45,668 nucleotides of DNA from a virus (IMGVR_UViG_3300011336_000451:1-45668); one strand, 5' to 3'; shown: positions 1,698 through 41,683, counted from the first letter of the stretch. The notes: generated by a model from the letters alone, not told the origin. Numbers and translations: made by a program.

Positions 1698-2672
1698 TTA
1701 AATTATGATGTCTTCAAAGTCATCAATATTACTATTTCTCTTACTGCCTGAGGAACCAGAACGAATATTACTATCCTTCTGAGACTTCAAAGCTTTAGAG
1801 AGTTTATCAGAAATATTAGTAGTAGCTCTTCTTTGCATATCTTCACTATTAAAGTTAGTGTAGTACATAAAGGCCATTACCAATTGTTTCTCATAATCTT
1901 GAGCATCTTCCTGTAACCTAGTCATACCATTTCTAGTTGGTTGTGTCATGTAGTTAAAGAAATCATCTTTAGTTCTTTTATCCATCTTAAATCCTTGAAT
2001 CTCTTCAATATTATTGATGGTTTGTCTAAGAGTTACCATTTGTTCTCTAGCAGCCTCTTGCTCATCAATTTTATTTTGTTCCAAAGAACTAAGATATTCT
2101 TGCATTTGAGCTTTTTGAGAGTTTACAAGAGCAGTATATGCTTCTTGAACCTCATTACCAAAAGTTCCATCATCTTTAGAACTATCAATAAGACGAGCAA
2201 TTCTAGCTTCTGAAATACCTTTAGCAGTATAGTAATCAATTACTACTTGCTCTTGAGTACCTTCATCAGACATATCTAACTCACTGTAATTTACTTCACC
2301 ATAAATTTGCATTACATCTTGGATTGAACCTCCATTCTGTACTACATCATATAGCATTGCAAGTTGCTCATTCTCTTGAAAGAGAGAACTAACTCTTGCA
2401 TTTACAGTATCTTCAAGGAGTTCTTCAATACCATTTTCAGTAGCATCATACTCCTTGTCCTCATTTGCAAACAAAACTCCTTTCTCTACTAGATCCTCCA
2501 TGAGAATCTGATAAGGAGTTTTATCTTCATCACTAATCTCTTCCCCACTATCCTCTTTATAAGAATCCTCTTCTTGAGAATCTTCATCAAAGGTTTCTTC
2601 CTCCTCTACACCTGTCTCTTCAAGTATAGGTTTTTTGTTTTCTAGTTCTTCTTCTACAAAGTCTCCAAACAT
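1698..2672 (-). CDS. acidic scaffold-like capsid assembly protein
   Basis: 324 aa, very acidic N-terminus, coiled-coil middle, directly upstream of MCP as in crAss-like capsid blocks. Confidence 0.65.
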   Translation of the reverse strand: MFGDFVEEELENKKPILEETGVEEEETFDEDSQEEDSYKEDSGEEISDEDKTPYQILMEDLVEKGVLFANEDKEYDATENGIEELLEDTVNARVSSLFQENEQLAMLYDVVQNGGSIQDVMQIYGEVNYSELDMSDEGTQEQVVIDYYTAKGISEARIARLIDSSKDDGTFGNEVQEAYTALVNSQKAQMQEYLSSLEQNKIDEQEAAREQMVTLRQTINNIEEIQGFKMDKRTKDDFFNYMTQPTRNGMTRLQEDAQDYEKQLVMAFMYYTNFNSEDMQRRATTNISDKLSKALKSQKDSNIRSGSSGSKRNSNIDDFEDIII

Positions 2673-2736
2673 GTTGTTCTAATTTTAAATTGTTATACGT
2701 TGTTTATTATACTCTCTAATATTATTTATTAGAGTT

Positions 2737-4353
2737 TTATTTAAATTTTAAATTTTTAGTTAAATTTTTAAATTCTAGTTCTCTAGCTTTAGCTTCTTTT
2801 AATGCTTGTGCATCTCCTAAACCCCTTGTTTTATTTCTTTCAAAAGCAGATTGTTTTTGAGATATTTTATATAGTTGTCTATTAATATTATCTATATCCT
2901 CTACTAGTTTAGAATTAGAAGAAGATCTAAATGGTCCAAATCCTGGAACACTAGATCTTAAATTTGCTAATTCTTTTTTCTTAGCCATAATAGCTTTTAA
3001 ATTAAATTCAGATACTGTAGTTTTATTATTAGAACTTTCTTGAGTATTAGTATTAACTTGTTTATTATTTTTTGGTTTTATTTCTTCTTTTTTAGAAGTA
3101 ACAACAGTTTCTCTAGCCCCTGTAAAAGGGGTTTTAGTTGTTCCAAAGTTTTTACCTACTGTACCTTTTCTTGAATTATAAACATCTTTATAATAAGTAT
3201 CAGGTTTAGTACTTCTATTACTTTTAACTTCCATTCTTTTAGAAAATGCTATCTCTTCTGGAGTAGCTGCTGCATATTTTCTACCACCTACTTCAAAAGC
3301 TTTACCTGATGCCATACCTGCTCTATAAGCTTTTTGATCAGCAGCAGACATTTGTTTAAAAGAGATATAAGGATTTTTTTCTTTTACAGGTTCTTTATAA
3401 AGAATAGGATTCTTTTCAGTAGATACTGGACCTCCTGCTTGTCTTTCTATAGCTCTTTGAACAGATTCTTTAGTAAAAGTAGGTGCTGTTAATGAAGATG
3501 GAATTCCTGATTTAATAGCAGCCTCAGTTGCTTCAGCATCTTTTTTATATTTAATTAGATCCTCTCTTGAAGGACCAACCATATTTTTTTCACCTTCTAT
3601 AGCTTGTTCTTTTTCATATTGAGTTCTAGCTGCTTCTGCATCTAATCTAGTTTCATAAGTTTTTCTAGCTCTCTCAGCATTTTCAGAAATTTCTTTATTT
3701 CTATCTGTTTCTAATTCTTCTTTAGAAGGCCCTGCAAATGTATCTTTACTATAAGTAATAGGAAGTTTAGTTTTATTAGAAGTTGTTAAATTTTTTAATT
3801 CTTTTTCTCTTTTAGTAATTTCTTCTTCATCTACTTTACCTATAACTTTAGGATTATTTTTATTAGCTTTATTATAAGTCCTCATAAGATCAGCAGCTTC
3901 TTTTCTAGTAGGCCCTACTTCTCCTTGAGGTTCATTACTTGATTGTACAGTTTTATTTTTACCTAAAATTCTACCAAAATATGCATTTAAATCTTCAGGA
4001 TTATCTGTAGCAGCATTATTTGTACCAGCTTGATATTTAATTAGTTTGCTACCTTTCTTATAAGGTTTAGCATTAGGATCAGGTTTTTTCATAAGTAAAG
4101 GCATTAAAGAACCAGCAGCTTTAGTAATTGCTCCTCCATAGTTTCCCATAAAAGCTCCTGCTTTATCTTTAAAAGAAGGCCCTTTTACTGTATCTTTTGT
4201 ATAAGCAACTTGAGAAATATCACCACTAGTAGGAATACTACTTGAGGAAGTAGTTGTATATTGTTTAAGAGCAGCATTTCCAGGATTAACCATCTGAGGA
4301 CTAGCCCCAGAAGCTGAAAATGTACCCCATTGATATTTCTTTACTTTAGCCAT
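2737..4353 (-). CDS. basic low-complexity protein, putative virion cargo/internal protein
   Basis: 538 aa, K/T/S-rich, repeated KKYQxG/KYxxG motifs; located between portal and scaffold. Confidence 0.45.
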   Translation of the reverse strand: MAKVKKYQWGTFSASGASPQMVNPGNAALKQYTTTSSSSIPTSGDISQVAYTKDTVKGPSFKDKAGAFMGNYGGAITKAAGSLMPLLMKKPDPNAKPYKKGSKLIKYQAGTNNAATDNPEDLNAYFGRILGKNKTVQSSNEPQGEVGPTRKEAADLMRTYNKANKNNPKVIGKVDEEEITKREKELKNLTTSNKTKLPITYSKDTFAGPSKEELETDRNKEISENAERARKTYETRLDAEAARTQYEKEQAIEGEKNMVGPSREDLIKYKKDAEATEAAIKSGIPSSLTAPTFTKESVQRAIERQAGGPVSTEKNPILYKEPVKEKNPYISFKQMSAADQKAYRAGMASGKAFEVGGRKYAAATPEEIAFSKRMEVKSNRSTKPDTYYKDVYNSRKGTVGKNFGTTKTPFTGARETVVTSKKEEIKPKNNKQVNTNTQESSNNKTTVSEFNLKAIMAKKKELANLRSSVPGFGPFRSSSNSKLVEDIDNINRQLYKISQKQSAFERNKTRGLGDAQALKEAKARELEFKNLTKNLKFK

Positions 4354-10502: not shown

Positions 10503-10518
10503 TATATTTGCAAATATA
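10503..10518. promoter_or_regulatory. bidirectional Bacteroidota sigma-A -7 element
   Basis: perfect palindrome TATATTTGCAAATATA gives TAnnTTTG on both strands, between divergent ATGs at 10489 and 10533. Confidence 0.7.
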
Positions 10519-11539: not shown

Positions 11540-11825
11540 AGTACATTTTACAAATTTTAATTTTTTTATTTCTTATAAAATTTTTTATATATTTGCATTG
11601 TACAAATAAGACCCCCTAGCAATAGGAAATTTTTATTTCGTATTTTCAATTTTTGTTTTTTTTTATCATAGATACCTTTTGAGTCTTACCCAAGAGGTAT
11701 TTTTTTTATAATTTTTTATAATTTTTTTAAAATGTAAGTTGGGTTGATAGCCCCAACAAAAGTCCCCCATTCTCATAATGATGCTGGGATGGGGTGTTCC
11801 CTTTGAATTAACCAGCTTGTTTACA

Positions 11826-12089
11826 ATGAACTTCCGCATCATAAAATTTACTGATTTTGAACATGAAGGTAAGAAAGGTACAGCATACACTGTAGCTCAT
11901 GCAGGGCGTGTTCTACAGGTTAGTACTCTCTACTTTGAGGAGGAGGGAGCGTTGACTGCCACTGATGGTAAACTTACCATCAAGGGTGATATAGAGGTTA
12001 TCAAGAAACCTTATGTCAACAAGATGGGAGAGACAGTACAGGGTTTGAGCATCATGCCTAAGTTTGGCATTGCTCTGTCTGATGTATAG
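11826..12089 (+). CDS. hypothetical beta-rich protein
   Basis: ORF-track 11778..12089; likely start at MNFRIIK (11826); followed by terminator. Confidence 0.6.
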   Translation: MNFRIIKFTDFEHEGKKGTAYTVAHAGRVLQVSTLYFEEEGALTATDGKLTIKGDIEVIKKPYVNKMGETVQGLSIMPKFGIALSDV

Positions 12090-12109
12090 GCTGGCTTCGC
12101 CAGTAGGAT

Positions 12110-12156
12110 AGGGTTGGGTTAGGGAGTATATCTCCTTAACTTAACCTTTTCTTTTC
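12110..12156 (+). terminator. intrinsic terminator
   Basis: AGGTTGGGTTAGGGAG-TATAT-CTCCTTAACTTAACCT followed by TTTCTTTT. Confidence 0.65.
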
Positions 12157-12270
12157 ATAAGTGGTTGATAATCACTATAATCTCTTATCACTCATCATAC
12201 AAGTATCAGCTATTCCTTGTGTGTTGTTTCAAGTTTTATTATAGCCAAATCTTTTTATTCACAGTTAATC

Positions 12271-12444
12271 ATGCAACCAGCTACAGAAAAATTACTTGAA
12301 TTGTTCAAGTTAATAAAAAACAATTATGGAGGTATTCTTACTAAAGAAGATATGTCTTCTATTTACTTTATTATAGGTAATAGAATAGATGAAATTCTCG
12401 AAGAAGAAAAAGAATATGCTAAAGAGTTAGAATCTAAGGGGTGA
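12271..12444 (+). CDS. hypothetical protein
   Basis: ORF-track 12217..12444; likely start at ATG 12271. Confidence 0.55.
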   Translation: MQPATEKLLELFKLIKNNYGGILTKEDMSSIYFIIGNRIDEILEEEKEYAKELESKG

Positions 12445-12452
12445 AATTCCCC

Positions 12453-12510
12453 TTTCTGTCTGCAAGTAATCTCTTGCACTGATGATGGCTAATTGATGCC
12501 GAAACAGAAA
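12453..12510 (+). ncRNA. hammerhead ribozyme, type III
   Basis: stem III TTTCTGT/ACAGAAA, GTC cleavage triplet (cut after 12460), stem I TGCAAG/CTTGCA, core CTGATGA, extra T, stem II GGC/GCC, GAAA. Confidence 0.88.
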
Positions 12511-12624
12511 ACCTTTTTTTATGTTCTCCTTCTATTGTGCTGGGGCAGTAATCCTTGGCCACAACTAGTGCAACTAAACAATGAAAGTTGCACACAAGTC
12601 CTGATATGACATTAAACTATTAAA

Positions 12625-12693
12625 GCCGAAACTAGGTGTGTAACAGCACCTAGTCTACAAGAATTAATCTACTTGTACTGATGATGGCAGATT
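12625..12693 (+). ncRNA. hammerhead ribozyme, type II
   Basis: GCC-GAAA-CTAGGTG/CACCTAG-TC (cut after 12655)-TACAAG/CTTGTA-CTGATGA-T-GGC; 3' tail AGATT complementary to loop I AATCT. Confidence 0.88.
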
Positions 12694-12719
12694 CCATAAA
12701 AACACAAACCAATAAAAAA

Positions 12720-13187
12720 GTGAAAATTATTCAAGAATTACTGAAAATGAAATTTCCTACTGTTGACATCAACAGCTTAATGGAAATCATCTCTGCAACT
12801 CCTAATCCTGAGATTGCAACAGAGATAATGTGTGGCATATATGTTGAACCTAATATTGGTTCACATACTAGAGTTCAACATAAGAATAGAGGTGTTTGCA
12901 CCTTTATTTCCTATGATAAATGGACAAACACTCTAGTGTATTCTTATCAAGAAGAAAGTACTAAAGGAGCCTATTTTCCTAAAGGTACTGAAAAAAAAGA
13001 TATTAACATGGACAACTTTGAGTCTATGAAAGTATCTTCTGGTACTGATACTGTATGGTATCATATTCCAACAGGAGAATATAAAACTCAACAGAGTTCT
13101 ACAAGTTTTAAAGATTGGATGGAACTACCATATGTTCCAACAGAAGCTGAAGTAAGAATGTTAGAGTCTCAAAACATTTATGCATAA
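12720..13187 (+). CDS. hypothetical protein
   Basis: ORF-track ATG 12681 lies in the hammerhead core; GTG 12720 after an A-rich leader is the more likely start. Confidence 0.65.
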   Translation: MKIIQELLKMKFPTVDINSLMEIISATPNPEIATEIMCGIYVEPNIGSHTRVQHKNRGVCTFISYDKWTNTLVYSYQEESTKGAYFPKGTEKKDINMDNFESMKVSSGTDTVWYHIPTGEYKTQQSSTSFKDWMELPYVPTEAEVRMLESQNIYA

Positions 13188-13344
13188 CTTAATTTTATCT
13201 AAAGACCAGTGGAAAAGATTTTCTGTTGGTCTTACTTCAAAACACAGAATTTATGCTTTATCTTATTCTATGGGTTTTTATACCTGTAGAGTTAAGTTTG
13301 TAGGATAAGTTACAGGAATACAGGTAGTAATATCTGTATTCCTT

Positions 13345-13433
13345 TTTATTAATGCTACTATATTCATACTTGTTGTATGTCTATAAAGGTCACAAGTCCT
13401 TAAAGCACTATCGTGCAAAAGCAGAGTGGTAAA
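13345..13433 (+). ncRNA. twister ribozyme (type P1, with P3 and P5)
   Basis: TAA-TGCT-AC ... AAGG-TCACAAGT-CCTT ... AGCA-GAGTG; pseudoknots CAC/GTG and AC/GT are compensatory relative to canonical twister; cut 13350/13351. Confidence 0.88.
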
Positions 13434-13446
13434 CCAAAAATTGAAT

Positions 13447-13845
13447 ATGTGGAATAAAGGTTTTGTACAAGCATTAGAAATAGGTAAATTAGTAGAAAAA
13501 CTATTACCTACATCAGTATCAGCATCTAAATTATTTAGTGCTAAAATAATAGACAGTGTCTATAAAGTTGATAAAGAAGAAAAAGAATGGTATTATATTG
13601 AAGCTCTACAAAATTGTAGAGAACAAGGTATTACTATTTGGATTCCTCAAGTTGCTAACAAAAAATCAATAACATTTTATGTTTGTGAACGCAGACGTAC
13701 AAATGAAATAGGTTTTTATTTAGGAGAACACACATTTCATGGAGTATCTAAAGATGCTTATGAAGAAGGATTTAAATCTTTTGATTCAATAGAATCATGT
13801 GCTAAAGGTATTTCAGATTGGATTAAATCTTATATGAATATCTAA
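13447..13845 (+). CDS. hypothetical protein
   Basis: ORF-track GTG 13426 overlaps the twister; ATG 13447 is the likely start. Confidence 0.65.
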   Translation: MWNKGFVQALEIGKLVEKLLPTSVSASKLFSAKIIDSVYKVDKEEKEWYYIEALQNCREQGITIWIPQVANKKSITFYVCERRRTNEIGFYLGEHTFHGVSKDAYEEGFKSFDSIESCAKGISDWIKSYMNI

Positions 13846-13873
13846 CAAAAGGTTGGTAAACCTATAAGCTTCC

Positions 13874-14049
13874 ATTTATTAATGCACCAATCTCACTTCC
13901 CAAGGGTGAGCAGTTGTAATAATCTCACTTACTCATTAGATTGTAGTTTTGAGGAGTTGAATAACTGAGTAGATTAATAATAAAACCCAGATGATACACA
14001 GTGTCTAAAGGTGAATTTATTAGTTACAACTGAGTGCAGAGGGGCAAAT
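13874..14049 (+). ncRNA. twister ribozyme with about 120-nt P5 insertion
   Basis: TAA-TGCA-CC-AAT-CTCAC-TTCCCAAGG-GTGAG-[CAGTTGTAA...TTACAACTG]-AG-TGCA-GAGGG; pseudoknots CCC/GGG and CC/GG; cut 13880/13881. Confidence 0.85.
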
Positions 14050-14418
14050 TAAATATAATGTAACTAGGTGCACACTAGTCTTAACCTGACAAACAAGGTT
14101 AATAGAATGTAAGATAACAGAAGATGAGGTCTTATTACATTATATTTTAATAAACTGGGGTTAGTCAATTACCCAGTATAAAAGACTCAATCACTATCCA
14201 GTAAGCTACTGGCAGTTTGGACAAACTAGGCGAAATGTTATAGGCTGATATACCTGAATGTATATTCACCAGTATTTATACTGGTGTTTAAGTAGACAAT
14301 AAAAAAGAACCTTTAGAGCTATAAGTATGCTCACGGTGTCTACATAATGCAAGTTAAACTCTTGCTACTAATCTTTATGTTTCACAAACAAATTAAAACC
14401 AATTAAAAAAACAAAAAC

Positions 14419-15138
14419 ATGAAAGTAGCTATCGTAAACAAAAATCCTCAATTCTATCCAGAAACAAAAAGTAAGGAAGAGTACCTAAAAGTAAGATTGA
14501 AAGATTATAACTTTCAAGAAGAAATAGAATTTTATTCTACAATAGATGAAGTTGAAATCTTTATGAAAGAGAAAGATATTGCATCTTATGATGTAGTATT
14601 TATTTCTACAAGTGTGACTCATCCTAGACAATATGAGCCAGCAATTTATGATTTCTCTGAACATAAACATGTATTCTTATTTACTGGAGGAGATCTTTCT
14701 TTCTTTAAAGCTCATTTTGATACTAAAAGTTTCTATTATAATGTAGAAAAGTTTCTTTTATGGTCCAAAAAATATGGAACATTTGAGAAAAATATCATAA
14801 GATATGGTCTTGTCAAAGAGTTAAAAGAAAGAAAGGAAGAAATGGAAAGAACCATTCTATCTAGATTGAAGGAACAAAAAACTCTTACAATGCTTGATAT
14901 AATAAAGGGCATTAAGTTGCAACCTCTTCCTAACTGGACAGAACTTGTCAATCATGATGAGATTCAATTTCTTATAGATGAGACAGATTTTTCTGAGGTG
15001 AAAAAAGAAAGAGCTATCTTAGATATGAATGAAGCTATTTCTGAAAACAACTTTGAGTTGTTTGAGAAAAGATATTTATACTTGATTGAAGAAATGTTTG
15101 GTCATTACAAAAACACTCTTTTTAAAAAAGATATATGA
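14419..15138 (+). CDS. hypothetical protein
   Basis: 239-aa ORF with strong A-rich leader. Confidence 0.7.
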   Translation: MKVAIVNKNPQFYPETKSKEEYLKVRLKDYNFQEEIEFYSTIDEVEIFMKEKDIASYDVVFISTSVTHPRQYEPAIYDFSEHKHVFLFTGGDLSFFKAHFDTKSFYYNVEKFLLWSKKYGTFEKNIIRYGLVKELKERKEEMERTILSRLKEQKTLTMLDIIKGIKLQPLPNWTELVNHDEIQFLIDETDFSEVKKERAILDMNEAISENNFELFEKRYLYLIEEMFGHYKNTLFKKDI

Positions 15139-15344
15139 GTAATGCAAAACAAGCTACCATCAGGAGGTTTACTAACCTCCTTGATGGTTCTATCATCCCA
15201 AGTGCTTGTGTATCTCAAATTATTGAGTATTATGAAGCACAATTAAGAAATGCTCCTATTGCAGTTAAAACTAATTGCAGTATTACTAATAAGTTCAAAG
15301 AAGCAGAAATTGCTGAGTATGAATATGAAGAAGATTGCGATTAA
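15135..15344 (+). CDS. hypothetical protein
   Basis: 69 aa, ATGA overlap with the previous gene. Confidence 0.55.
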   Translation: MSNAKQATIRRFTNLLDGSIIPSACVSQIIEYYEAQLRNAPIAVKTNCSITNKFKEAEIAEYEYEEDCD

Positions 15345-15480
15345 ATTGTTATTACTAGTATTTATTACTAGTTGTACAACTACAGGATATATACCACAGA
15401 AAAATCCTAATAAAAAGTCCTCATCAAGAGGTCACAAATGTGGTAAGACAATGGGATCTTATATTAATTCCATTAAATAA
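15325..15480 (+). CDS. small putative lipoprotein
   Basis: MKKIAIKLLLLVFITSC lipobox-type signal followed by a basic tail. Confidence 0.55.
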   Translation: MKKIAIKLLLLVFITSCTTTGYIPQKNPNKKSSSRGHKCGKTMGSYINSIK

Positions 15481-15696
15481 ATTTAGTTTATACCAATAAT
15501 AACTTCTTTCTAATTACTCAGGTTAGAACTATCCTAATTCAGTAATATTGTAGGCTGCTAAGATAGAAGAAGTACTGAGTAAATATAACAATTAAGAAGA
15601 AATTAGTGTGATGATAGACTTTAAGAACATAGTTTAAACTGTTCTTATAAGATAGCACACTTAATTGTTTATTTTAAACTTTTAAACAACAAACAT

Positions 15697-15762
15697 ATGG
15701 TAACATTTGTAATAATAACAGGATTCTTAGGGTTGTGTGCATTAGCACAACTAAAAGATTAA
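15697..15762 (+). CDS. 21-aa hydrophobic peptide
   Basis: MVTFVIITGFLGLCALAQLKD after leader TTTAAACAACAAACAT. Confidence 0.4.
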   Translation: MVTFVIITGFLGLCALAQLKD

Positions 15763-16190
15763 GATATAAAAATCACTTGCTTGAAGATAAACAAATAATC
15801 AGTAGCACTGAATTAACAGTGTGTTATATGTGAACATATAGTAATAATTATAAATAAAAACTATATAAAAGGACATTAACGAATTAACATTCCAGTTATT
15901 AAACTGTACTAGCAGTTGTGTTTATTGTAAAGATGCAAAGTACAGCATGTTGAGCATTCTACTAGATATAGACAAGTGATTTTTTAAGGATAGTGGACTG
16001 AACATCGAAAGCCACTTTAAAAATTGGATATTTATGGTAACATAAATTGTGTTGTTCCCTTGAGAAAGGAATGTAAGGTCAAAGTGATAAATTAAGTTAA
16101 CTAGATTTGCTTATCACAACACAAATGAGTTCTCAATATTTACCCCATAGAAATATGGGGTGGAATATTTAATTTTAAAAACAATTCAAT

Positions 16191-16256
16191 ATGGAAAATT
16201 GGAAAGACATCCCTGATTATGAAGGGTTATATCAAACAAGATTTACCAAGATATAA
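16191..16256 (+). pseudogene. NUMOD4 homing-endonuclease remnant
   Basis: MENWKDIPDYEGLYQ matches the NUMOD4 start (E.WKDIPGYEGLYQ), then stops after 21 codons. Confidence 0.75.
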
Positions 16257-16458
16257 GTTGAAATCTACCAACTTTAATTAGAAGATTATAGTAATATAAT
16301 CCATAGATGGGAATGTATGAGATATGTCCCTATATACTATGAGAAGTTCTCAGCAAGTAGTAAAGCGGATAACATGGTATAGCAGCACGCTCCATTGCTA
16401 CGTGACCCTACTCTTATAACTAAGATAAGAGGGTGCTAATAATTTACAATTAAATCAA

Positions 16459-16611
16459 ATGAAAGAAAAACAAACTGCACAAGAATGGTGGAAAGGTCTA
16501 GGATCTTACACCAAACAATTATATCAGCGTAGACACTATCCAGCTACAAACTGGTTATATCTTACTGATGAAATGATTCAAACAATTTATCAAAAAGAGA
16601 AAGTAAAATGA
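16459..16611 (+). CDS. hypothetical protein (not in ORF track)
   Basis: 50 aa MKEKQTAQEWWKGL..., ATGA overlap with the next gene. Confidence 0.55.
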   Translation: MKEKQTAQEWWKGLGSYTKQLYQRRHYPATNWLYLTDEMIQTIYQKEKVK

Positions 16612-16850
16612 CAACAATTTTTATTGTCATATGGCTACTAATGGGAGTATTAGGAGTTATGGGAGCTTATTATGGTTATATTAAACACTGGTATCTTCAA
16701 TATAATGAAGATATAAGATTAACTACAACTAATGAGACTTTAAAACAAATTTTAAATCCTATTTTTGTATTATCAGGACCTGTTGTGTTAGTAATAGCAT
16801 ATTTAAAAGTTCCTAACTTTACACTTTATTTTAAAATACCAAAGAAATGA
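16608..16850 (+). CDS. membrane protein
   Basis: two hydrophobic segments. Confidence 0.6.
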   Translation: MTTIFIVIWLLMGVLGVMGAYYGYIKHWYLQYNEDIRLTTTNETLKQILNPIFVLSGPVVLVIAYLKVPNFTLYFKIPKK

Positions 16851-17197
16851 AAATAAGAACCTTTGGAATAGAAACCATTATAATTAATGGTAATCCTGTT
16901 TGTGCTATTAATATAACTATTAATAGCAGTCCAATTATTTTAGAACAAGTCATTAATGATGAGTTCTGGAAGATGAAACATACTATTAGTATGAAAAATA
17001 GTGTTAGCAAAATCAACTTTAATTACTTTACAAGTAATTTAGATGAAGCTGCTATTGCTATATCTTCTTTAAACAAACTTCTATTTGCACACAAAGTGCA
17101 AAAACTTGTAAACGAAGCTCATTTTGTACAAAACAAAGAAACTATTATTTACAACACACTTGCAAGTATTATTGACATTAATGGTGGTAGATTATGA
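16847..17197 (+). CDS. hypothetical protein
   Basis: 116 aa, ATGA-coupled. Confidence 0.6.
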   Translation: MKIRTFGIETIIINGNPVCAINITINSSPIILEQVINDEFWKMKHTISMKNSVSKINFNYFTSNLDEAAIAISSLNKLLFAHKVQKLVNEAHFVQNKETIIYNTLASIIDINGGRL

Positions 17198-17340
17198 AAA
17201 AAAAACAAATTAAAAACACAAAACAAGTATCCTTTGAGTTAGTAAAGGATATTTTGAAGTACTCTCCTGAATGGGATAGTATGTCTTTGAAAGTAATCAT
17301 TGGAAAGCAAGATGAGAATACTTATCTGACTATCAAATGA
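17194..17340 (+). CDS. hypothetical protein (not in ORF track)
   Basis: 48 aa, ATGA overlaps at both ends. Confidence 0.5.
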   Translation: MKKKQIKNTKQVSFELVKDILKYSPEWDSMSLKVIIGKQDENTYLTIK

Positions 17341-17579
17341 TGAAAGTTATTTGTATAGATGCTAGTTGTAGGCCAGAGGAAGTACCAACTTCCTCTTGGC
17401 TTGTTGAAGGACAGGAATATACTGTCCTTAGAGTAGGTGTTAATAAATTAACACATGAGGAGTATTTTATACTCCAAGAAATAGATGTAACTCCACCTTA
17501 TGGTGGATATAAAGTTAACAGGTTTAGAATTCCTCATCCTGATGCAATAGATGCACAACTTGAGGTACAAGCTCTTTAA
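17337..17579 (+). CDS. hypothetical protein (SH3-like phage family)
   Basis: KVICID...LVEGQEYTV...RF pattern. Confidence 0.6.
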   Translation: MMKVICIDASCRPEEVPTSSWLVEGQEYTVLRVGVNKLTHEEYFILQEIDVTPPYGGYKVNRFRIPHPDAIDAQLEVQAL

Positions 17580-17648
17580 AATTCAATATTTAAAACAACT
17601 TCAATATTTATTAAAATGTTAAAAAACAAGTAAAAAACAATTAAAATC

Positions 17649-18155
17649 ATGTCAAAATTTCTTATCAAAACAGCAGAATCACCAGTAAAAACAGACAAAA
17701 ATACTCGTAAGTATAAAACTGTTACATTTACAGAAGCAGGATTTATGGAGACTCCTTGGGGTCTTGTACAAAAACCAACTGCTCAGTGTATTAGTACTGC
17801 TGTTAATTGTTATGAGAATAACTATTTGGAAAGAATGGATTTAGGTTGGGCAGATCCAATCTTTAATCCAAAGAATCCAGCTGCTGGTGGTATCTTTGAA
17901 GGTTCTATTGAGCAAAGAAATGTTAAAGAATATAACATTACTTCTGCAGATGGTACAGTTAGAACTGTAGATACTTACAAAACTGTAGTATTTGGTAATA
18001 CAGATTCTCCTTCTTATGAGAGTACTGTTAAATCTGCCTTTAAAAGCAGAGGTCAAGAGATTGTAGAATCTTCTATAGGAGAACTTGCAAAGATTAATCT
18101 TGAAAGTTTAAAACAACCTGTAGTAGATGCAGATCCAGTTGCAATAGGTAACTAA
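17649..18155 (+). CDS. hypothetical protein
   Basis: 168 aa, strong leader, followed by terminator. Confidence 0.7.
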   Translation: MSKFLIKTAESPVKTDKNTRKYKTVTFTEAGFMETPWGLVQKPTAQCISTAVNCYENNYLERMDLGWADPIFNPKNPAAGGIFEGSIEQRNVKEYNITSADGTVRTVDTYKTVVFGNTDSPSYESTVKSAFKSRGQEIVESSIGELAKINLESLKQPVVDADPVAIGN

Positions 18156-18163
18156 TTTACATT

Positions 18164-18195
18164 ATAGGGGGAGAGAAATCTCCTCCTATTTAATT
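18164..18195 (+). terminator. intrinsic terminator
   Basis: ATAGGGGGAGA-GAAA-TCTCCTCCTAT followed by a T-rich tail. Confidence 0.65.
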
Positions 18196-18205
18196 TATCT
18201 TATTT

Positions 18206-18529
18206 ATGGAATTAATAGAAGAATGGAAAGCTAGTAGATTTGTTAAGAATGAATCTACATTAACCTTTTTACCTTTTAAAGGACAAGCCTATTTTAATAG
18301 TCATGCACTTAAGAGGTTACCATCTGTATGTTATTACAGATTTAAAATTACTACAAGTGGTATTAAATTATCATTTAGTAGTTATCCAAAAAAAGACTAT
18401 AAACCATTTAATGGTAGAATTAATAGTTCTACTGTATTTGGTAATAAAACAACCTTTCTTATGAAAGGACCATTGCATAATTTAAAATTTACAAACATTT
18501 CTAAAACTGTTAAAATTCTAGTATCATGA
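18206..18529 (+). CDS. hypothetical protein
   Basis: 107-aa ORF. Confidence 0.55.
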   Translation: MELIEEWKASRFVKNESTLTFLPFKGQAYFNSHALKRLPSVCYYRFKITTSGIKLSFSSYPKKDYKPFNGRINSSTVFGNKTTFLMKGPLHNLKFTNISKTVKILVS

Positions 18530-18876
18530 AAATCAAAGATAACTCAAGTACTGTACAATTCTCAGAGAAACATCTCTGGAAGCACAAAGATGGCTCAATG
18601 GAGCTTATCTCCACAATGCCAAATAAGAAACTGACAAGTATTATCTTGCCAGAAATTCACAAGAGATTAGAGGAAAAAAGAGCATCTGTTGCTCTTTTTC
18701 AAGAAAAATTGCAAGTTTGCAATGAAGTTCTTGTTAGTAGGGGTATCCTTACTAAACAAGAAAATGTTAATACTAATGTAATTAATGCCATTAAGAAATT
18801 TCCAATAGAGATTGTAGAACAAGCTCTTGAGGAAATGTTAGAAGCAGAGAGAATTAGGGTTAATAAACATAACTAA
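18526..18876 (+). CDS. hypothetical protein
   Basis: 116 aa, ATGA-coupled. Confidence 0.6.
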   Translation: MKIKDNSSTVQFSEKHLWKHKDGSMELISTMPNKKLTSIILPEIHKRLEEKRASVALFQEKLQVCNEVLVSRGILTKQENVNTNVINAIKKFPIEIVEQALEEMLEAERIRVNKHN

Positions 18877-18877
18877 T

Positions 18878-19045
18878 ATGAAAGAGGTATTTAAATTCAT
18901 AGTAGCAATACTCATATATGTGTATTGTTTACCTATTGTAATTCTTTCTTTGTTTAAAGTTCTATGGAAATGGGATTTAACAGTCCTTAATAAGACTATG
19001 GAAAGTGTTGAAGAATTAATACTATCTATAGTTGAGTTACATTGA
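18878..19045 (+). CDS. small membrane protein (not in ORF track)
   Basis: 55 aa with a hydrophobic N-terminal half. Confidence 0.45.
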   Translation: MKEVFKFIVAILIYVYCLPIVILSLFKVLWKWDLTVLNKTMESVEELILSIVELH

Positions 19046-19094
19046 GAAACTAAGTTTATACTAATCAGTATTCTTTAAAAATACAGATTTATAA

Positions 19095-19167
19095 GGTTCT
19101 ATGGTGAAATTGGATATCATAATTCTCTTCTAAAGAATTGTTTCTGGATCGTACCCAGATAGAACTA
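19095..19167 (+). tRNA. tRNA-Arg(TCT)
   Basis: acceptor GGTTCTA/TAGAACT, anticodon arm ATTCT-CTTCTAA-AGAAT, T arm TCTGG-ATCGTAC-CCAGA (atypical loop); no encoded CCA. Confidence 0.8.
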
Positions 19168-19242
19168 CTTATAGTGCCTCCATAGTGGGCAACTAGCTGA
19201 AAAGCAAATACTGAACTATTGACAGCTGGAAAGACAGCAAAT

Positions 19243-19331
19243 AGTCAAGTAATGCGTAATGTGAAAGTGGCCTATCACATCCAACTAAGGAAAAGGTTGC
19301 ATAATCATGAGTTCGAATCTCATCTTGACTA
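19243..19331 (+). ncRNA. tRNA-like RNA / pseudo-tRNA
   Basis: acceptor AGTCAAG/CTTGACT and canonical T arm ATGAG-TTCGAAT-CTCAT, but no canonical D or anticodon arm. Confidence 0.6.
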
Positions 19332-19368
19332 CATGTTATTTTGGTTAATTGTGAACAAATAAATAGTG

Positions 19369-19406
19369 TAAAATAGGAGGGATATTCTCTCCTATTTTCT
19401 TTTCTC
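19369..19406 (+). terminator. terminator after the tRNA cluster
   Basis: AAAATAGGAGGGA-TAT-TCTCCTCCTATTTT followed by CTTTT. Confidence 0.6.
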
Positions 19407-19492
19407 TTATTAACCACATAAAGATTTTTTTTGATTAATTGGTGTTTAAAATGGTAATAAGTTAGGATATATTGTCCTAACTTATTTTTCTA

Positions 19493-19500
19493 TATATTTG
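19493..19500 (+). promoter_or_regulatory. Bacteroidota -7 promoter element
   Basis: TATATTTG ending 4 nt before the sigma-factor ATG. Confidence 0.55.
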
Positions 19501-19504
19501 CCAA

Positions 19505-19954
19505 ATGAATTTTGAATTTTACAAGTATAAAAAAGAAGTTAAAAGATTTGCTAAAAACAAGTTTAAACTTAAAGATGAAGATTTAGATGATTTTGTAGAA
19601 GATGTATTGCTTAAAGCTACTCTTAAACAACATCTATTTGATAGTACAAAAAGTGCAGTAGTAACTTGGATAAATAATATCTCAAGAAACCACTATATTG
19701 ATAAATATATTAGAAAGAAACATCCAGAATATATAGATACAATACCAGAAAGATTAGAAGAAACTTCTAATGATAGTATAGATCTAAATAGTTTCAAAGA
19801 ATATTTAATGGGTTCTCCATTATACATGTTTTTCTTACTTAAGAGTGAGGATACATCAATAGAAGATATCTGTAATGAGCTTCAAATATCTATTAAAGAC
19901 TACAAAAAGCTCTCTCAAGAATTAAAAGAAAAGTGGTATGATTATAATCTTTAA
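19505..19954 (+). CDS. ECF-type sigma-70-like factor
   Basis: region 2 pattern DDFVEDVLLKA...FDSTKSAVVTWINNISRNHYID; region 4-like SIEDICNELQIS. Confidence 0.75.
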   Translation: MNFEFYKYKKEVKRFAKNKFKLKDEDLDDFVEDVLLKATLKQHLFDSTKSAVVTWINNISRNHYIDKYIRKKHPEYIDTIPERLEETSNDSIDLNSFKEYLMGSPLYMFFLLKSEDTSIEDICNELQISIKDYKKLSQELKEKWYDYNL

Positions 19955-25702: not shown

Positions 25703-27313
25703 ATGAAAAAATTATTAAGCTTTCTATTATTTGCAATTGCATTTAATAGTTACAGTCAAAATTACATTGATGTATGGCAAACTTTTGGTGCTACAAAATC
25801 AAAAACTTTAACAACTTTACCAACTTCATTTGCAAGTACTGATCCAAGTGGTAAAGTCATTATGTATAAGAAAGTTACTACACCAGATTTTATTGTAACT
25901 ACCTCAGATGGTAAAAAAACTAAACAAAATGTTGTACAATATAAATCTACTGAAGGGTTTAGTGTTATTACTAAAACAGAACAAGGTTGGATTGGATATT
26001 TACACAGTGAAAGTGATAACTGGAATATAACAGAAACTGGAGTAGTTAAAGATAGTATTAGTAAATTACAAGGAGGAAATACTGATGAAGTAGAAGTTAC
26101 TAATACCTTTAATAAGAGTCTTCCAGAGACAAATCAAGCACCACCAGATTTTTATGATAACTCACAATCAATCAATAAGATATGTAAGGTTTACATAGAA
26201 GTATGTAATGATCTATATGTAAGATGGGGAACTAATACAGTTTCTCAAGTATCAATGATCTTTGGAGCTGTAAAAGAACTTTATGCTAGAGATGGTGTAC
26301 AAATTCAATTAGGTGAGATTTTCATATGGACTACCATTGATCCATATGCTACTCTACAAGGATCTCAAACAATTCTTATTGAATTTGCAACAAGAAGATC
26401 AGAAAATCCTTGGAGATTCAAACACCTTTTAAACAATAAAAACTTTGGAGGTATTGCTTATGTAAATGCAGGTATGATAACACCAGTTCCATTTGCATAC
26501 TCAGGAATGGGTGGATGGGAAACCTCCTCATCTTCAACAGTATATAGCTGGCCTCTTTATGTATTTGCTCATGAGATGGGGCATAATTTAGGAGCAAGAC
26601 ATACTCATTGGGGATGTTGGAAAGACCTTAGAACCAATACTCTAATTGGTAGATTGGATAGTTGTAATAATTGTGAGCCTTGTGAATTAACTTCACCTAC
26701 TTGTAATAGCATAACTAAACTAAATAGGAATGGTACAATTATGAGTTATTGTCATATTAATGGTAATGTAAACCCAAGTAAAGGATTTGGTATTCATCCA
26801 GCAGCTACAATGAGAAAAGCTATCTGGGAATCAACTATTCCTTTTGAGACTTCTTGTACAACTACATACTCTGCTTGGACAACTTGCACTAATGGAGTAC
26901 AAACAAGAACATTTACTCAAACAGGAACTAATTGTGTAACACCTCCAACAGATTCATTAACAAGAAGTTGTACAGTAGCACAACCCTTTCAAGTTACTAA
27001 TCAAGTATGTTATAAGGGTACAGATGGTAAGTGGAGAGTTAAGTTTAATATAAGTTTAACACCAATTTCTTATCCAACTATTACTCTTAATCTATGTAGA
27101 TATGGAAATAGTACTGGTAATTGTAATACAGCTACTTTAGCACCTACTGCTTGTGGTAGTAGAACTTTTACAGCACTAACACTAATTGAAAAAACTACTG
27201 GTTTTGTTGATAGAGTACTTAATCCACAACCTGCAATCCTTAACTCTTGTTACAGGATGGAAGTAAAGTATGGTACTACTAAAGTATGGACACCATACTT
27301 TATTGCTAATTAA
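25703..27313 (+). CDS. secreted zinc metalloprotease (M12/reprolysin-like) with Cys-rich C-terminus
   Basis: signal peptide MKKLLSFLLFAIAFNSYSQ; HEMGHNLGARH zinc motif; Met-turn GTIMSYC; TSP1-like WTTCTNGVQTRT. Confidence 0.88.
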   Translation: MKKLLSFLLFAIAFNSYSQNYIDVWQTFGATKSKTLTTLPTSFASTDPSGKVIMYKKVTTPDFIVTTSDGKKTKQNVVQYKSTEGFSVITKTEQGWIGYLHSESDNWNITETGVVKDSISKLQGGNTDEVEVTNTFNKSLPETNQAPPDFYDNSQSINKICKVYIEVCNDLYVRWGTNTVSQVSMIFGAVKELYARDGVQIQLGEIFIWTTIDPYATLQGSQTILIEFATRRSENPWRFKHLLNNKNFGGIAYVNAGMITPVPFAYSGMGGWETSSSSTVYSWPLYVFAHEMGHNLGARHTHWGCWKDLRTNTLIGRLDSCNNCEPCELTSPTCNSITKLNRNGTIMSYCHINGNVNPSKGFGIHPAATMRKAIWESTIPFETSCTTTYSAWTTCTNGVQTRTFTQTGTNCVTPPTDSLTRSCTVAQPFQVTNQVCYKGTDGKWRVKFNISLTPISYPTITLNLCRYGNSTGNCNTATLAPTACGSRTFTALTLIEKTTGFVDRVLNPQPAILNSCYRMEVKYGTTKVWTPYFIAN

Positions 27314-33653: not shown

Positions 33654-35636
33654 CTTTAGAAGAGAGAATATATGCCGGTGTTGAGGGTAAGTTTCAAGGC
33701 TTATCTAATGGCTTCAAAAGAATTAACAAAGAAATACATGGTCTACAAAGAGGGGTATACACCTTACTAGGCGGACTTTCAGGTACTTATAAGACTACTC
33801 TTGCAGACTTTATGCTATTAAATGCAATAAGTGATGCAGAAAGCCAAGGACTGGAAATCAATGTATTTTACTACTCTTATGAGATTGACGAGTTATCCAA
33901 GAAATGTAATTGGCTTTCCGTGATCATTAAGAATAAGTATAATGTTACTATTCCTCCAGAAGTTATTAAGGGTTTTGGTGATAACAGACTAACACCTTTG
34001 GAGTTAGACTATGTTAAGAAAGAGATACCTACAGTAAATGCTTTATTCTCTAAGATAAATTTTAGATTTAAGAGTACTAATCCTACTGGAATTTATAATG
34101 AGATGTGGCAATATCTCTCATCTAAGGGTACATTTACTTATGTAGAATATACAGATGCTGAAGGTAATTCTAAGAAGAAGATTGATAAGTTTACTGCTAA
34201 TAATCCTGAAGCTTATAATATAATTATCTTAGACCATCTTCTACTTCTTAAGAAAGAGAGAGGATTCTCTGATAAAGAAGTTATAGATAAAGCATCAGAA
34301 TATATGGTAGAACTTAGAAATATGTTCAATGTATCTTGTATCTTTATATCTCAGTTTAATGATGGGTTAATATCAAACAAACCTTTGTTTATCTGTCGTA
34401 TAATAATATATGGCAGGTATTTATATTATAAAGAACATTATCAATAATAAAGTTTATATCGGAAGTTCAAAAAATATTGAAAACCGATTTAGAAAACACT
34501 TAAGTGCATTAAAAGGTGGTAGACATATAAATAAGCACCTACAAGCAGCTTTTATAAAATATGGTGAAGAAAACTTTTCTTTTACTATATTAAAAGAAAC
34601 TTCTATTTCAATCTTAAGAAAAGCAGAACAACTATTTATTAATAAATATCAAAGTTTAAACCCTAAATATGGGTATAATAAAACAGTTGTTGAGTCTAAT
34701 AAATGGGATGATTTTGAAAAAGAAGAAGTTTCAGTAATAAAAGAAAGGATTTATTTTGGATGTTATACTAAAGAAGGTAAACTAAAAAAAGTTTTTAGAA
34801 CTATAAAGGAAGTTTATACTTATTTAGGAAAAAGAGATACCAGAATTTATGATGCTTGTAATAGCAACTTAAGAAAAACATCAAAAAATTTATATTGGAT
34901 TAGAATTAATGTAGATTTACAAAAGTTTCCAAAAACTATAACTCCTAAAACAAGAATGGGAAGGCATAGAAAATTGTATCAATATGATTTTAATAATAAT
35001 CTTATTAATACTTGGGAAAGTGCTGTAATAGCAGGTAAATCTCTTAATATTAATTCAAATGAAATAACTAGATGTTTAAAAAAAGATAATATTTATAAAA
35101 ATAGCAAATGGTTTTATAGCCCCATAATACAGTGATGTATTATGCAAACCCTGAATATCGGTGGAACTCTAGAGATAGACAATACCGAGAGATAGGCTTA
35201 ATTTATTAAGCAAGCTCGTAACGACTACCAAGGGGTATCTTATAATTTATAAGATAATGGTATAGTCTGATCTGCAACTATAATCTAAATAAAAAGAAAT
35301 TGCAGTTAACACAATGTATCATCAATTGATAGAGCCAAATTTAAAGGTGTAGATATATCTCCACAAATTACTGATTTTAAGTCATCTAGGAATCCATATG
35401 CAGATGCAGATGTAGTACTTGCTACTATGTCAGCATTTAAGATGGATATGCCTACATGCTTAGGTTATGATGTAAATAAGCTTAAAGAAAGCTTTCTTAT
35501 GTTAAAAGTAATTAAGAATAGACTTGGTAGAGATAATATTGCTATTGGTTTACTAGCTAATCCTAAAGCAGGTAGTTTTACAGAGCTACCACCAGCAAAA
35601 TCTGAAGAAATGCAAACAATTTATAACTCACTTTAA
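33650..35636 (+). CDS. dnaB: DnaB-like replicative helicase, spliced (exons 33650-34367 and 35317-35636)
   Basis: Walker A GLSGTYKT, IILDHL, SQFN; splicing joins SQFNDG-L-SSIDRAKFKG...DFKSSRNPYADADVV...KNRLG in frame (345 aa). Confidence 0.87.
34368..35316 (+). mobile_element. group I intron with homing endonuclease
   Basis: exon ends in U (GGGT|) and intron ends in G (ACAATG|); core P TGAATATCGGTGGAA, Q AATACCGAG, R GTAACGACTAC, S GGTATAGTCT. Confidence 0.9.
34410..35135 (+). CDS. intron-encoded GIY-YIG homing endonuclease
   Basis: GIYIIKNIINNKVYIGSS...R...E...GYN; C-terminal NUMOD1-like repeats. Confidence 0.92.
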   Translation: MAGIYIIKNIINNKVYIGSSKNIENRFRKHLSALKGGRHINKHLQAAFIKYGEENFSFTILKETSISILRKAEQLFINKYQSLNPKYGYNKTVVESNKWDDFEKEEVSVIKERIYFGCYTKEGKLKKVFRTIKEVYTYLGKRDTRIYDACNSNLRKTSKNLYWIRINVDLQKFPKTITPKTRMGRHRKLYQYDFNNNLINTWESAVIAGKSLNINSNEITRCLKKDNIYKNSKWFYSPIIQ

Positions 35637-41011: not shown

Positions 41012-41683
41012 ATGAGATATAATCGTTTAGAATTTAGTAGATTTTCAGCAGCACCGTTTGTAACAGAGAAACCCCTAGAAATTATTCTAGGGGGACTTGG
41101 TGGTGTAGGTGCTTATGTAGCTTTCTTCTTATCCAGACTTAGACATCAGCTGTATTGCTATGAGATGGATACTGTAGAAGATGTAAACTTAGACTGTCAA
41201 TTCTTTAAGTACTCAGATTTGGGTAAACCTAAGGCTGAAGCAGTTTCTGATATGATTATAGCTTACTCTAATTCTTATATATGTCATCTTGATAAATATG
41301 AGGAAGGTAGTGAGGTAACTGATTATTGTTTTGCTATGTTTGACAATATGGAAGCTAGGAAACTCATGTTTGAAGAGTGGTGTAAAATGCCTGATAAGAA
41401 AATCTTTATAGATACCAGATTGCAAGCAGAGGAATTTCAAATCTTTTGTGTACATAAGGAAGAACATATTCAAATGTATATTGATTCTCTAAGAAGAGAT
41501 GATGAGATACCAGATTTACCTTGTAGTTATAAACAAACAGGGCATTATGCAGCTATGGTAGCAACTCAAGCTGTAGCACTATTCTGTAATTATCTTGCTA
41601 ATCAAAAGCATCTTGCAGATATTGGTGAGGAGATTAGAGAAGTACCTTTCTTTCATACTTTTAATGGACTTACATGGCAGTAA
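41012..41683 (+). CDS. E1/ThiF-family adenylating enzyme
   Basis: GLGGVG, DTVEDVNL..Q, GKPKA, FDNMEAR, DTR, candidate catalytic Cys in PCSYKQT. Confidence 0.9.
   Translation: MRYNRLEFSRFSAAPFVTEKPLEIILGGLGGVGAYVAFFLSRLRHQLYCYEMDTVEDVNLDCQFFKYSDLGKPKAEAVSDMIIAYSNSYICHLDKYEEGSEVTDYCFAMFDNMEARKLMFEEWCKMPDKKIFIDTRLQAEEFQIFCVHKEEHIQMYIDSLRRDDEIPDLPCSYKQTGHYAAMVATQAVALFCNYLANQKHLADIGEEIREVPFFHTFNGLTWQ

Follow-up and report, generated by a model that had tools for sequence, protein, structure and literature searches.

Four ribozyme folds, two hammerheads and two twisters, lie on the + strand within 1.6 kb of the viral DNA analysed here (the window, 45,668 nucleotides). All four are intergenic, with predicted cuts after 12460, 12655, 13350 and 13880, and the locus raises the question of what such an arrangement would do to the RNA that crosses it.

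Across the whole record, capsid, portal and terminase genes are found on the − strand and replication genes on the + strand. PHROG matches place a terminase, a portal and a capsid of crAss type in a single block, and the terminase matched 160 phage records (best identity 34.5%). Since these matches are mostly crAss-named phages and phages of Bacteroides, Flavobacterium and Cellulophaga, the source phage is assigned to the crAss-like phages (Crassvirales) by its terminase, portal and capsid genes; the giant virion RNA polymerase is a Crassvirales criterion, and no ORF in this 45.7-kb fragment exceeds 798 aa. The ribozyme region is a stretch of small genes without assigned function at the start of the plus-strand block; runs of short uncharacterised genes are a usual trait of crAss-like phages (PMC10136315). 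Cultured phages gave no meaningful DNA match to 12400–14450. Elsewhere in the window an M12 metallopeptidase domain (25703–27313), a ThiF domain (41012–41683), a sigma-70 region 2 protein (19505–19954) and a GIY-YIG-type homing endonuclease (34410–35135), whose gene adjoins a helicase, were recognised. The single Rfam match in the window at gathering level is a tRNA; a second tRNA-like element with a long variable region at 19243–19331 (Rfam 28.4 bits, E 0.011; missed by ARAGORN) is matched in four relatives.

Both strands of the window were scanned with a hammerhead descriptor of three helices plus core motifs, and the window was also scanned with a twister descriptor of the P1 type. The hammerhead descriptor gave exactly two matches in the window and none in 20 dinucleotide shuffles, and the twister descriptor likewise gave exactly two, with cuts after 13350 and 13880. 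At looser settings, 100 whole-window shuffles returned 2 hammerhead and 4 twister matches in total. A stricter twister descriptor missed the 13880 twister because of an A·C mismatch in P1; support for this fold comes from covariation across homologs. The isolated folds gave z-scores of −3.71 (hammerhead III), −2.65 (hammerhead II) and −2.44 (twister 1). The four folds are real, well beyond chance, and represent putative self-cleaving RNAs that are probably active to differing degrees. The first-pass annotation had proposed two hammerheads and two twisters with these types and cut positions, which descriptors and shuffles uphold, and had placed them between genes on the + strand, which is borne out for all four.

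The Rfam search that it had recommended gave a divided answer. None of the four reaches the gathering score, a catalogue threshold rather than a class-defining feature. At the E-value level twister-P1 was recovered at 13346–13432 (36.9 bits, E 2.8e−5; gathering 67.2) and Hammerhead_II at 12624–12696 (28.4 bits, E 0.016; gathering 37), and the other two were missed, with no match to the type III hammerhead at E up to 10 and none to the 13880 twister. As Rfam thresholds miss all four, ribozyme numbers in phage genomes are likely to be underestimated. Equilibrium folding in a wider context, pseudoknots excluded, weakened several predicted core helices: stem III of hammerhead III fell from 0.51 to 0.13, stem II of hammerhead II from 0.56 to 0.04 and P2 of twister 1 from 0.45 to 0.01; efficient cutting would therefore need co-transcriptional folding and pseudoknots.

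Simple, unvalidated descriptors for pistol, HDV-like and twister-sister ribozymes returned no further ribozyme in the window, and a hammerhead scan of 11540–19500 with one core change allowed found only the two known. A fifth candidate at 14052–14148 was rejected: its start resembles a type II stem III, but it has no hammerhead core. This segment, directly after twister 2, has a stable multibranch fold (z −3.66), and relatives carry other stem-closed inserts there.

Table 1. Features of the ribozyme region, in window coordinates.
Feature	Position	Strand	Remarks
Promoter-like −7 box, Bacteroidota type	11588..11595	+	consensus match only
Terminator-like hairpin, 17 pairs and U tract	12110..12148	+	upstream of the cluster
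Conserved structured leader module	12158..12250	+	14 distinct versions
57-aa ORF, no family	12271..12444	+	stop codon inside the 12436..12454 hairpin
G/C hairpin	12436..12454	+	relatives have a U tract behind it instead of a hammerhead
Type III hammerhead	12453..12510	+	predicted cut after 12460; descriptor, fold
Type III hammerhead, stem III	12453–58/12505–10	+	
Type III hammerhead, stem I	12461–66/12473–78	+	
Type III hammerhead, core	12479–12485 and 12501–12504	+	
Type III hammerhead, stem II	12487–89/12498–500	+	
Non-coding structured module	12517..12621	+	part of the 195-nt piece; L134 carries a homolog and neither hammerhead
Small H-type pseudoknot	12598..12621	+	34 nt before the type II cut
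Type II hammerhead	12625..12693	+	predicted cut after 12655; Rfam E-value level, descriptor
Type II hammerhead, core	12628–31 and 12678–84	+	
Type II hammerhead, pseudoknot	loop I 12666–70 with tail 12689–93	+	5 bp
155-aa ORF, likely GTG start, no family	12720..13187	+	
42-aa ORF	13180..13308	+	overlaps the 155-aa ORF; missed in the first-pass annotation
Terminator-like hairpin, 13 pairs, conserved	13314..13343	+	U tract runs into P1 of twister 1
Twister 1, type P1, with P3 and short P5	13346..13432	+	predicted cut 13350/13351; Rfam E-value level, fold, descriptor
132-aa ORF, phrog_6319, unknown function	13447..13845	+	20 homologs at 50–86%
Twister 2, type P1	13875..14048	+	predicted cut 13880/13881; descriptor and homolog covariation
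Twister 2, P5 arm	13911–14032	+	122 nt

Both hammerheads have unmodified cores and GUC triplets, with stems I/II/III of 6/3/6 bp in the type III and 6/3/8 bp in the type II ribozyme; in the one without a close homolog the loops can pair over 3–4 nt. The type II hammerhead recurs in one of 28 metagenome loci (L113), 1.3 kb upstream of twister 2 and with a different gene behind it, many of the 28 loci being too short to reach this slot. Relative to the window, L113 carries two compensated pairs in the pseudoknot between loop I and the tail and the pairing is kept, which points to selection on the hammerhead II module somewhere, not necessarily in this genome. Perreault et al. found this pseudoknot to be needed for fast cleavage (PMC3088659). 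A shared core 17-mer was found at 30 viral loci, four of which fold as hammerheads (three copies of one type III and one type I), and the hammerhead pattern gave 16 sequence-level matches in five relative records.

In both twisters P1, P2 and P4 follow the P1-type order, with a U-A cleavage step and G-A after P2. Twister 1 aligns without gaps to the consensus L4 length, and its pseudoknots from L4 pair AC with GU and CAC with GUG. Together with the 132-aa gene it forms a 530-nt unit, and the 11-nt direct repeat at the borders of this unit extends across both cut sites. A search for the genomic setting of the 132-aa gene elsewhere yielded no usable loci and one distant 38% match. Besides the A·C mismatch in P1, L4 of twister 2 contains one additional base; as this base is present in all 14 aligned homologs, twister 2 represents a variant relative to the consensus. 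Its L4 pseudoknots, CC/GG and CCC/GGG, are compensated in homologs. Element order, both pseudoknots and catalytic positions are those of the type-P1 twister (RF03160; PMC11662667); unlike the Rfam consensus, the twister 2 family has the extra L4 base and P5 arms of 41–254 nt, and 5 of 28 records also carry large inserts ahead of the L4 core. In a large twister assay P1 imperfections were tolerated and L4 imperfections lowered cleavage, and cleavage was weaker in twisters preceded by a P0 hairpin (0.40 versus 0.85); such a P0 hairpin, P3 and a variable P5 are known auxiliary options (PMC11662667).

Homologs of twister 2 were collected with exact-pattern scans, which returned 14 viral and 28 metagenome loci, some repeating the same contig; with earlier loci the set comprised 44 parsable loci, reduced to 28 distinct records. 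The scan pattern fixes the 3′ side, so that conservation there arises by construction. Of the 28 records, 23 form the T1 pseudoknot as CCC/GGG and 4 as CCA/UGG, and in the remaining one it is broken; P4 occurs in three unrelated paired versions. The covariation alignment was restricted to 14 hand-picked records, none of which has an L4 insert. Pairing holds in 96.8% of its cells and both partners vary at 9 of 29 pairs, which neither any of 500 shuffles nor any slid control reaches, relatedness being able to inflate the shuffle result. The comparison argues that twister 2 is under structural selection. The P5 arms are closed in all 28 versions, by 6–15 pairs each, and only two pairs of cargos are alike over full length. 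Rfam failed to detect the homolog with the 41-nt P5 (L021). The L4 inserts (L018, L069/L072, L117, L119 and L126) measure about 70–190 nt and contain two hairpins where folded. Twister 2 3′ halves are joined in L109 and L125 to different 5′ parts without the cleavage-site motif, and L110 carries a tandem partial copy; these derivatives are possibly inactive.

The first-pass annotation had the four ribozymes punctuate one transcript, which is not supported as written. The nearest recurring promoter-like element is the 11588 box, which matches the Bacteroidota −7 consensus; its 9-mer recurs at 10503 and 19493, and no −33 box was found for it. Both terminator-like hairpins of Table 1 lie downstream of this box and demand read-through, and therefore the ribozymes would have no substrate but read-through RNA or transcripts of unrecognised promoters. 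Terminator-like sites are more frequent than expected (8 found, 1.9 expected). A sigma-70 promoter scan was uninformative (28 sites, 33.4 expected), and no convincing internal promoter was found for the genes behind three of the cuts, which have A-rich leaders. Overlapping divergent promoter-like boxes lie at 10503–10518, where the packaging block gives way to the plus-strand block.

The predicted pieces also differ in part from those first described. The piece between the hammerhead cuts is indeed non-coding, 195 nt without a gene. Two monocistronic RNAs had been expected downstream: 13351–13880 does hold one gene, and 12656–13350 holds the 155-aa and 42-aa ORFs and would therefore be bicistronic. 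Intact homologs of the 42-aa ORF, with substitutions, occur in four of eight close relatives (L002, L004, L005 and L019). The likely starts of the 155-aa and 132-aa ORFs were set at 12720 and 13447, since the ATG at 12681 and the GTG at 13426 chosen by the ORF finder lie within ribozyme cores. No Pfam family and no usable atlas match were found for the bracketed ORFs. Upstream of the cluster, 6 of 15 predicted pairs in the 12158–12250 module are compensated among 12 aligned versions, and the module may act as leader RNA or as a binding site for a protein. It has an invariant 5′ palindrome and is better conserved than any ribozyme in the region. Downstream, a non-coding module at 14147–14411 is common to L013, L108, L119, L129 and L133 at 76–93%, with no Rfam match.

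The positions of the cuts relative to neighbouring structures suggest what the ends might be for. Cuts 12460 and 13350 lie 6–7 nt behind hairpins that are terminator-like in relatives, and the type II cut follows the small H-type pseudoknot. The 1.80 Mb of fetched DNA contain 20 distinct covarying versions of this pseudoknot, whereas 0.53 Mb of shuffled sequence contain none. Five of the 20, unrelated phages included, lie within 34 nt before a predicted cut, a count favoured by the fetching of these loci around ribozymes. Rfam assigned the pseudoknot array to no family. Just upstream of twister 2 P1, 16 of 26 distinct 40-mers reach a folding energy of −8 kcal/mol or lower; among 187 overlapping control 40-mers from intergenic DNA of the window the share is 13%. 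Inspection distinguished about 10 unrelated hairpin sequences there; the window's own twister 2, with a weak upstream fold (−4.9, z −0.27), is an exception. Among unrelated type III hammerheads only 3 of 11 have a strong upstream hairpin. As three of the four cuts stand behind a clear hairpin or pseudoknot, the arrangement suggests that ends are made behind protective structures. As a counterpoint, the hairpin adjacency could stem from recombination into U tracts rather than from selection.

How unusual the density is was estimated with two gapped patterns, which hit at least 246 viral loci; among the matches listed, 95 passed the descriptor and 81 were distinct. Fifty listed loci spanned at least 3 kb, of which 44 had one same-strand ribozyme, four had two, two had three and none had four, and none of the six multi-ribozyme loci listed included a P1 twister. 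With a maximum of three among the matches listed, four ribozymes in 1.6 kb stand at the upper end. The unrelated 263-kb record L331 has, at 2482–3660, a type III hammerhead, a gene, a type II, a gene and a second type II at consecutive gene junctions; its first hammerhead lies behind a hairpin and has a stem III identical to that of the window's type III.

A terminase search returned 62 loci, of which 16 with more than 2.5 kb upstream were compared; eight of these, at 92–98% terminase identity, cover the region. Twister 2 is present in seven of the eight (with an L4 insert in L018) and absent in L004, and both hammerheads and twister 1 are found in none. L002 and L023 have twister 2 immediately behind the 13314 hairpin. 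Between these two elements the window has its 530-nt twister-plus-gene unit, L019 a different 177-nt twister unit, and L005 and L133 ribozyme-free gene units. Rfam assigned no family in four relative loci. The region is a mosaic: its modules, be they gene, hairpin, pseudoknot or ribozyme, vary among relatives, gain and loss being unpolarised, and we infer that modules are exchanged by recombination at short shared ends. Twister 2 is the stable feature of the clade, and the other three are sporadic modules that have come together in this genome. The earlier description of an RNA processing hub goes too far, three of the four ribozymes being absent from all eight terminase-anchored relatives. 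Moreover, the bracketed genes occur elsewhere without ribozymes; the 155-aa homologs in L107 (66%) and L018 (27%) have none in front, and processing is therefore not essential for those genes.

The reading that we favour, and hold to be somewhat better than an even proposition, is that the ribozymes cut read-through RNA into end-protected pieces at variable small-gene junctions of a crAss-like phage. Transcription would cross both terminator-like hairpins, and the four folds would then cleave the read-through RNA at the gene junctions. The predicted products are the 195-nt non-coding RNA, messages of 695 nt with two genes and of 530 nt with one, and a downstream RNA that begins with the large twister 2. 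Upstream pieces would end in a hairpin or pseudoknot that protects the 3′ end, and downstream pieces would begin with a folded 5′-hydroxyl end and might decay more slowly. A 5′-hydroxyl slows end-dependent decay in E. coli (10.1101/2020.07.22.216051), and the glmS case shows that it triggers decay where RNase J acts (PMC3997798). Processing independent of host nucleases, as put forward from the first inspection, stands as the best reading of the prediction, with precedent in PMC3088659. The same glmS result would also suit a fail-safe role in termination or silencing, in which leaky read-through is cut behind the terminators, the upstream end is normalised and the downstream RNA is uncoupled or degraded. 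The cuts 6–7 nt behind hairpins that are terminator-like in relatives fit this idea, which we nevertheless judge rather unlikely: genes with A-rich leaders and no convincing internal promoter lie behind three cuts, and a long P5 arm closed in 28 of 28 twister 2 versions would be needless on discarded RNA. That only twister 2 is maintained, with the hammerheads and twister 1 having arrived with their modules by recombination and having no effect, is unlikely as well, if a shade less so. Their absence from all eight close relatives, the neighbouring genes that exist without them and the module between the hammerheads that L134 carries without either would be expected of such passengers; against this, all three keep intact cores and helices, and hammerhead II shows the compensated changes relative to L113, which speak of selection somewhere rather than necessarily here.

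Two further readings shift the emphasis from cleavage at gene junctions to the pieces themselves. Ribozyme-bounded pieces might circularise and, after reverse transcription, reinsert at cut sites in the manner of retrozymes. Four seam closures were tested: closing 12461–12655 rebuilds the type II hammerhead and closing 13351–13880 rebuilds twister 1, and the other two rebuild no ribozyme. The 11-nt repeat over both cut sites of the 530-nt unit, and the second twister unit at the same site in L019, would also be in keeping, but seam rebuilding and the repeat follow automatically from two same-class ribozymes in tandem. Furthermore, neither the scanned ORFs of the window nor five partial relative records (27–65% complete) yielded a reverse transcriptase, RtcB or an RNA ligase, the units swapped at this site in L005 and L133 are free of ribozymes, and circular or spliced products were absent in the work of Perreault et al. 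(PMC3088659). We therefore regard mobile RNA circles as very improbable, and we put just as little weight on the extension of this idea in which the cut sites are joints of mobile cassettes, the 195-nt and 530-nt circles reinsert, and the conserved twister serves as landing pad and cargo carrier. Least probable of all is that regulatory or decoy RNAs, namely the 195-nt RNA and the twister 2 RNA with its variable P5, are the main products and gene separation is incidental. The geneless 195-nt piece does hold a conserved module and the P5 cargo does differ across the 28 versions, but no cargo match above 15 nt was found elsewhere in the fetched loci or the window, one truncated homolog excepted, and strong variation is a known trait of auxiliary twister arms (PMC11662667). 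An antisense role of the P5 cargo against phage genes was likewise unsupported.

Ribozyme clusters of this kind have close precedents. Perreault et al. (2011) described clustered hammerheads that flank single genes or gene blocks in prophages, tandem phage hammerheads shown to cut in vitro and in E. coli, and a proposed division of long phage transcripts into gene-length RNAs (PMC3088659). The window is likewise phage DNA in which several ribozymes on one strand border single genes or short gene blocks, with hammerheads of mixed permutation close together beside unrelated small genes and a type II ribozyme with a loop I–tail pseudoknot. Here, in contrast, hammerheads stand together with twisters, one of the bracketed pieces carries no gene, the phage is crAss-like and the relatives reveal which modules are stable; the Perreault ribozymes are demonstrated cutters, whereas those of the window are predicted from sequence. 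Bacterial ribozymes have been reported near each other and near phage genes, and co-location with processing of polycistronic RNA is already in print as an open question (PMC6765202, PMC5737381), the role of bacterial and phage self-cleaving ribozymes being called largely open in the former. To this the present locus adds comparative evidence for cuts behind 3′ structures and for module exchange. As in retrozymes (PMC7761336), tandem hammerheads bound a short non-coding RNA that could circularise; unlike retrozymes, the unit is single-copy in the window, no partner reverse transcriptase was found in the five partial records, the two hammerheads are unlike in topology and in stem III, and the genome is that of a bacterial virus, not of a plant or animal. 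Titles and abstract openings in the literature disclosed no hammerhead or twister clusters in crAss-like phages, supplementary lists possibly holding these sequences, and the main text of the theta-ribozyme paper (PMC10879173) makes no mention of crAss, hammerhead or twister. The arrangement is already known in kind, and the addition made here is one stable twister, three sporadic modules and cuts behind 3′ structures.

In the T7 early transcript, RNase III, a host nuclease, cuts at junctions and leaves defined structured ends, as does the cut at the junction in RiboJ, an engineered insulator. The window resembles both in its predicted junction cutting and defined structured ends; the host nuclease sets the T7 case apart from it, and the engineered origin RiboJ. 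The 1.7-kb locus combines two classes and three topologies, and its relatives have none, one or two ribozymes around shared hairpins and genes; with these natural relatives as built-in controls, the idea of processing and stabilisation is testable.

Several relatives also carry a two-part RNA motif that is absent from the window. It lies just upstream of a gene, has a variable insert of 55–168 nt and sits in the stretch that the hammerheads occupy in the window. The loop of its hairpin covaries with the nucleotides that follow this hairpin (CCC/GGG, CUC/GAG, UCC/GGA), and compensation is likewise seen in a second pairing of 4 bp; this holds for 11 of 13 matches, the other 2 being spurious. No Rfam family was assigned to the motif, whose loop resembles twister L4 and which may be an uncatalogued or inactive ribozyme relative. 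It was located in L004 (5648, −), L005 (2431, −), L023 (5591, −), L113 (503, +) and L131 (188, +), and also in L114, L119 (two copies), L126, L133 and L134.
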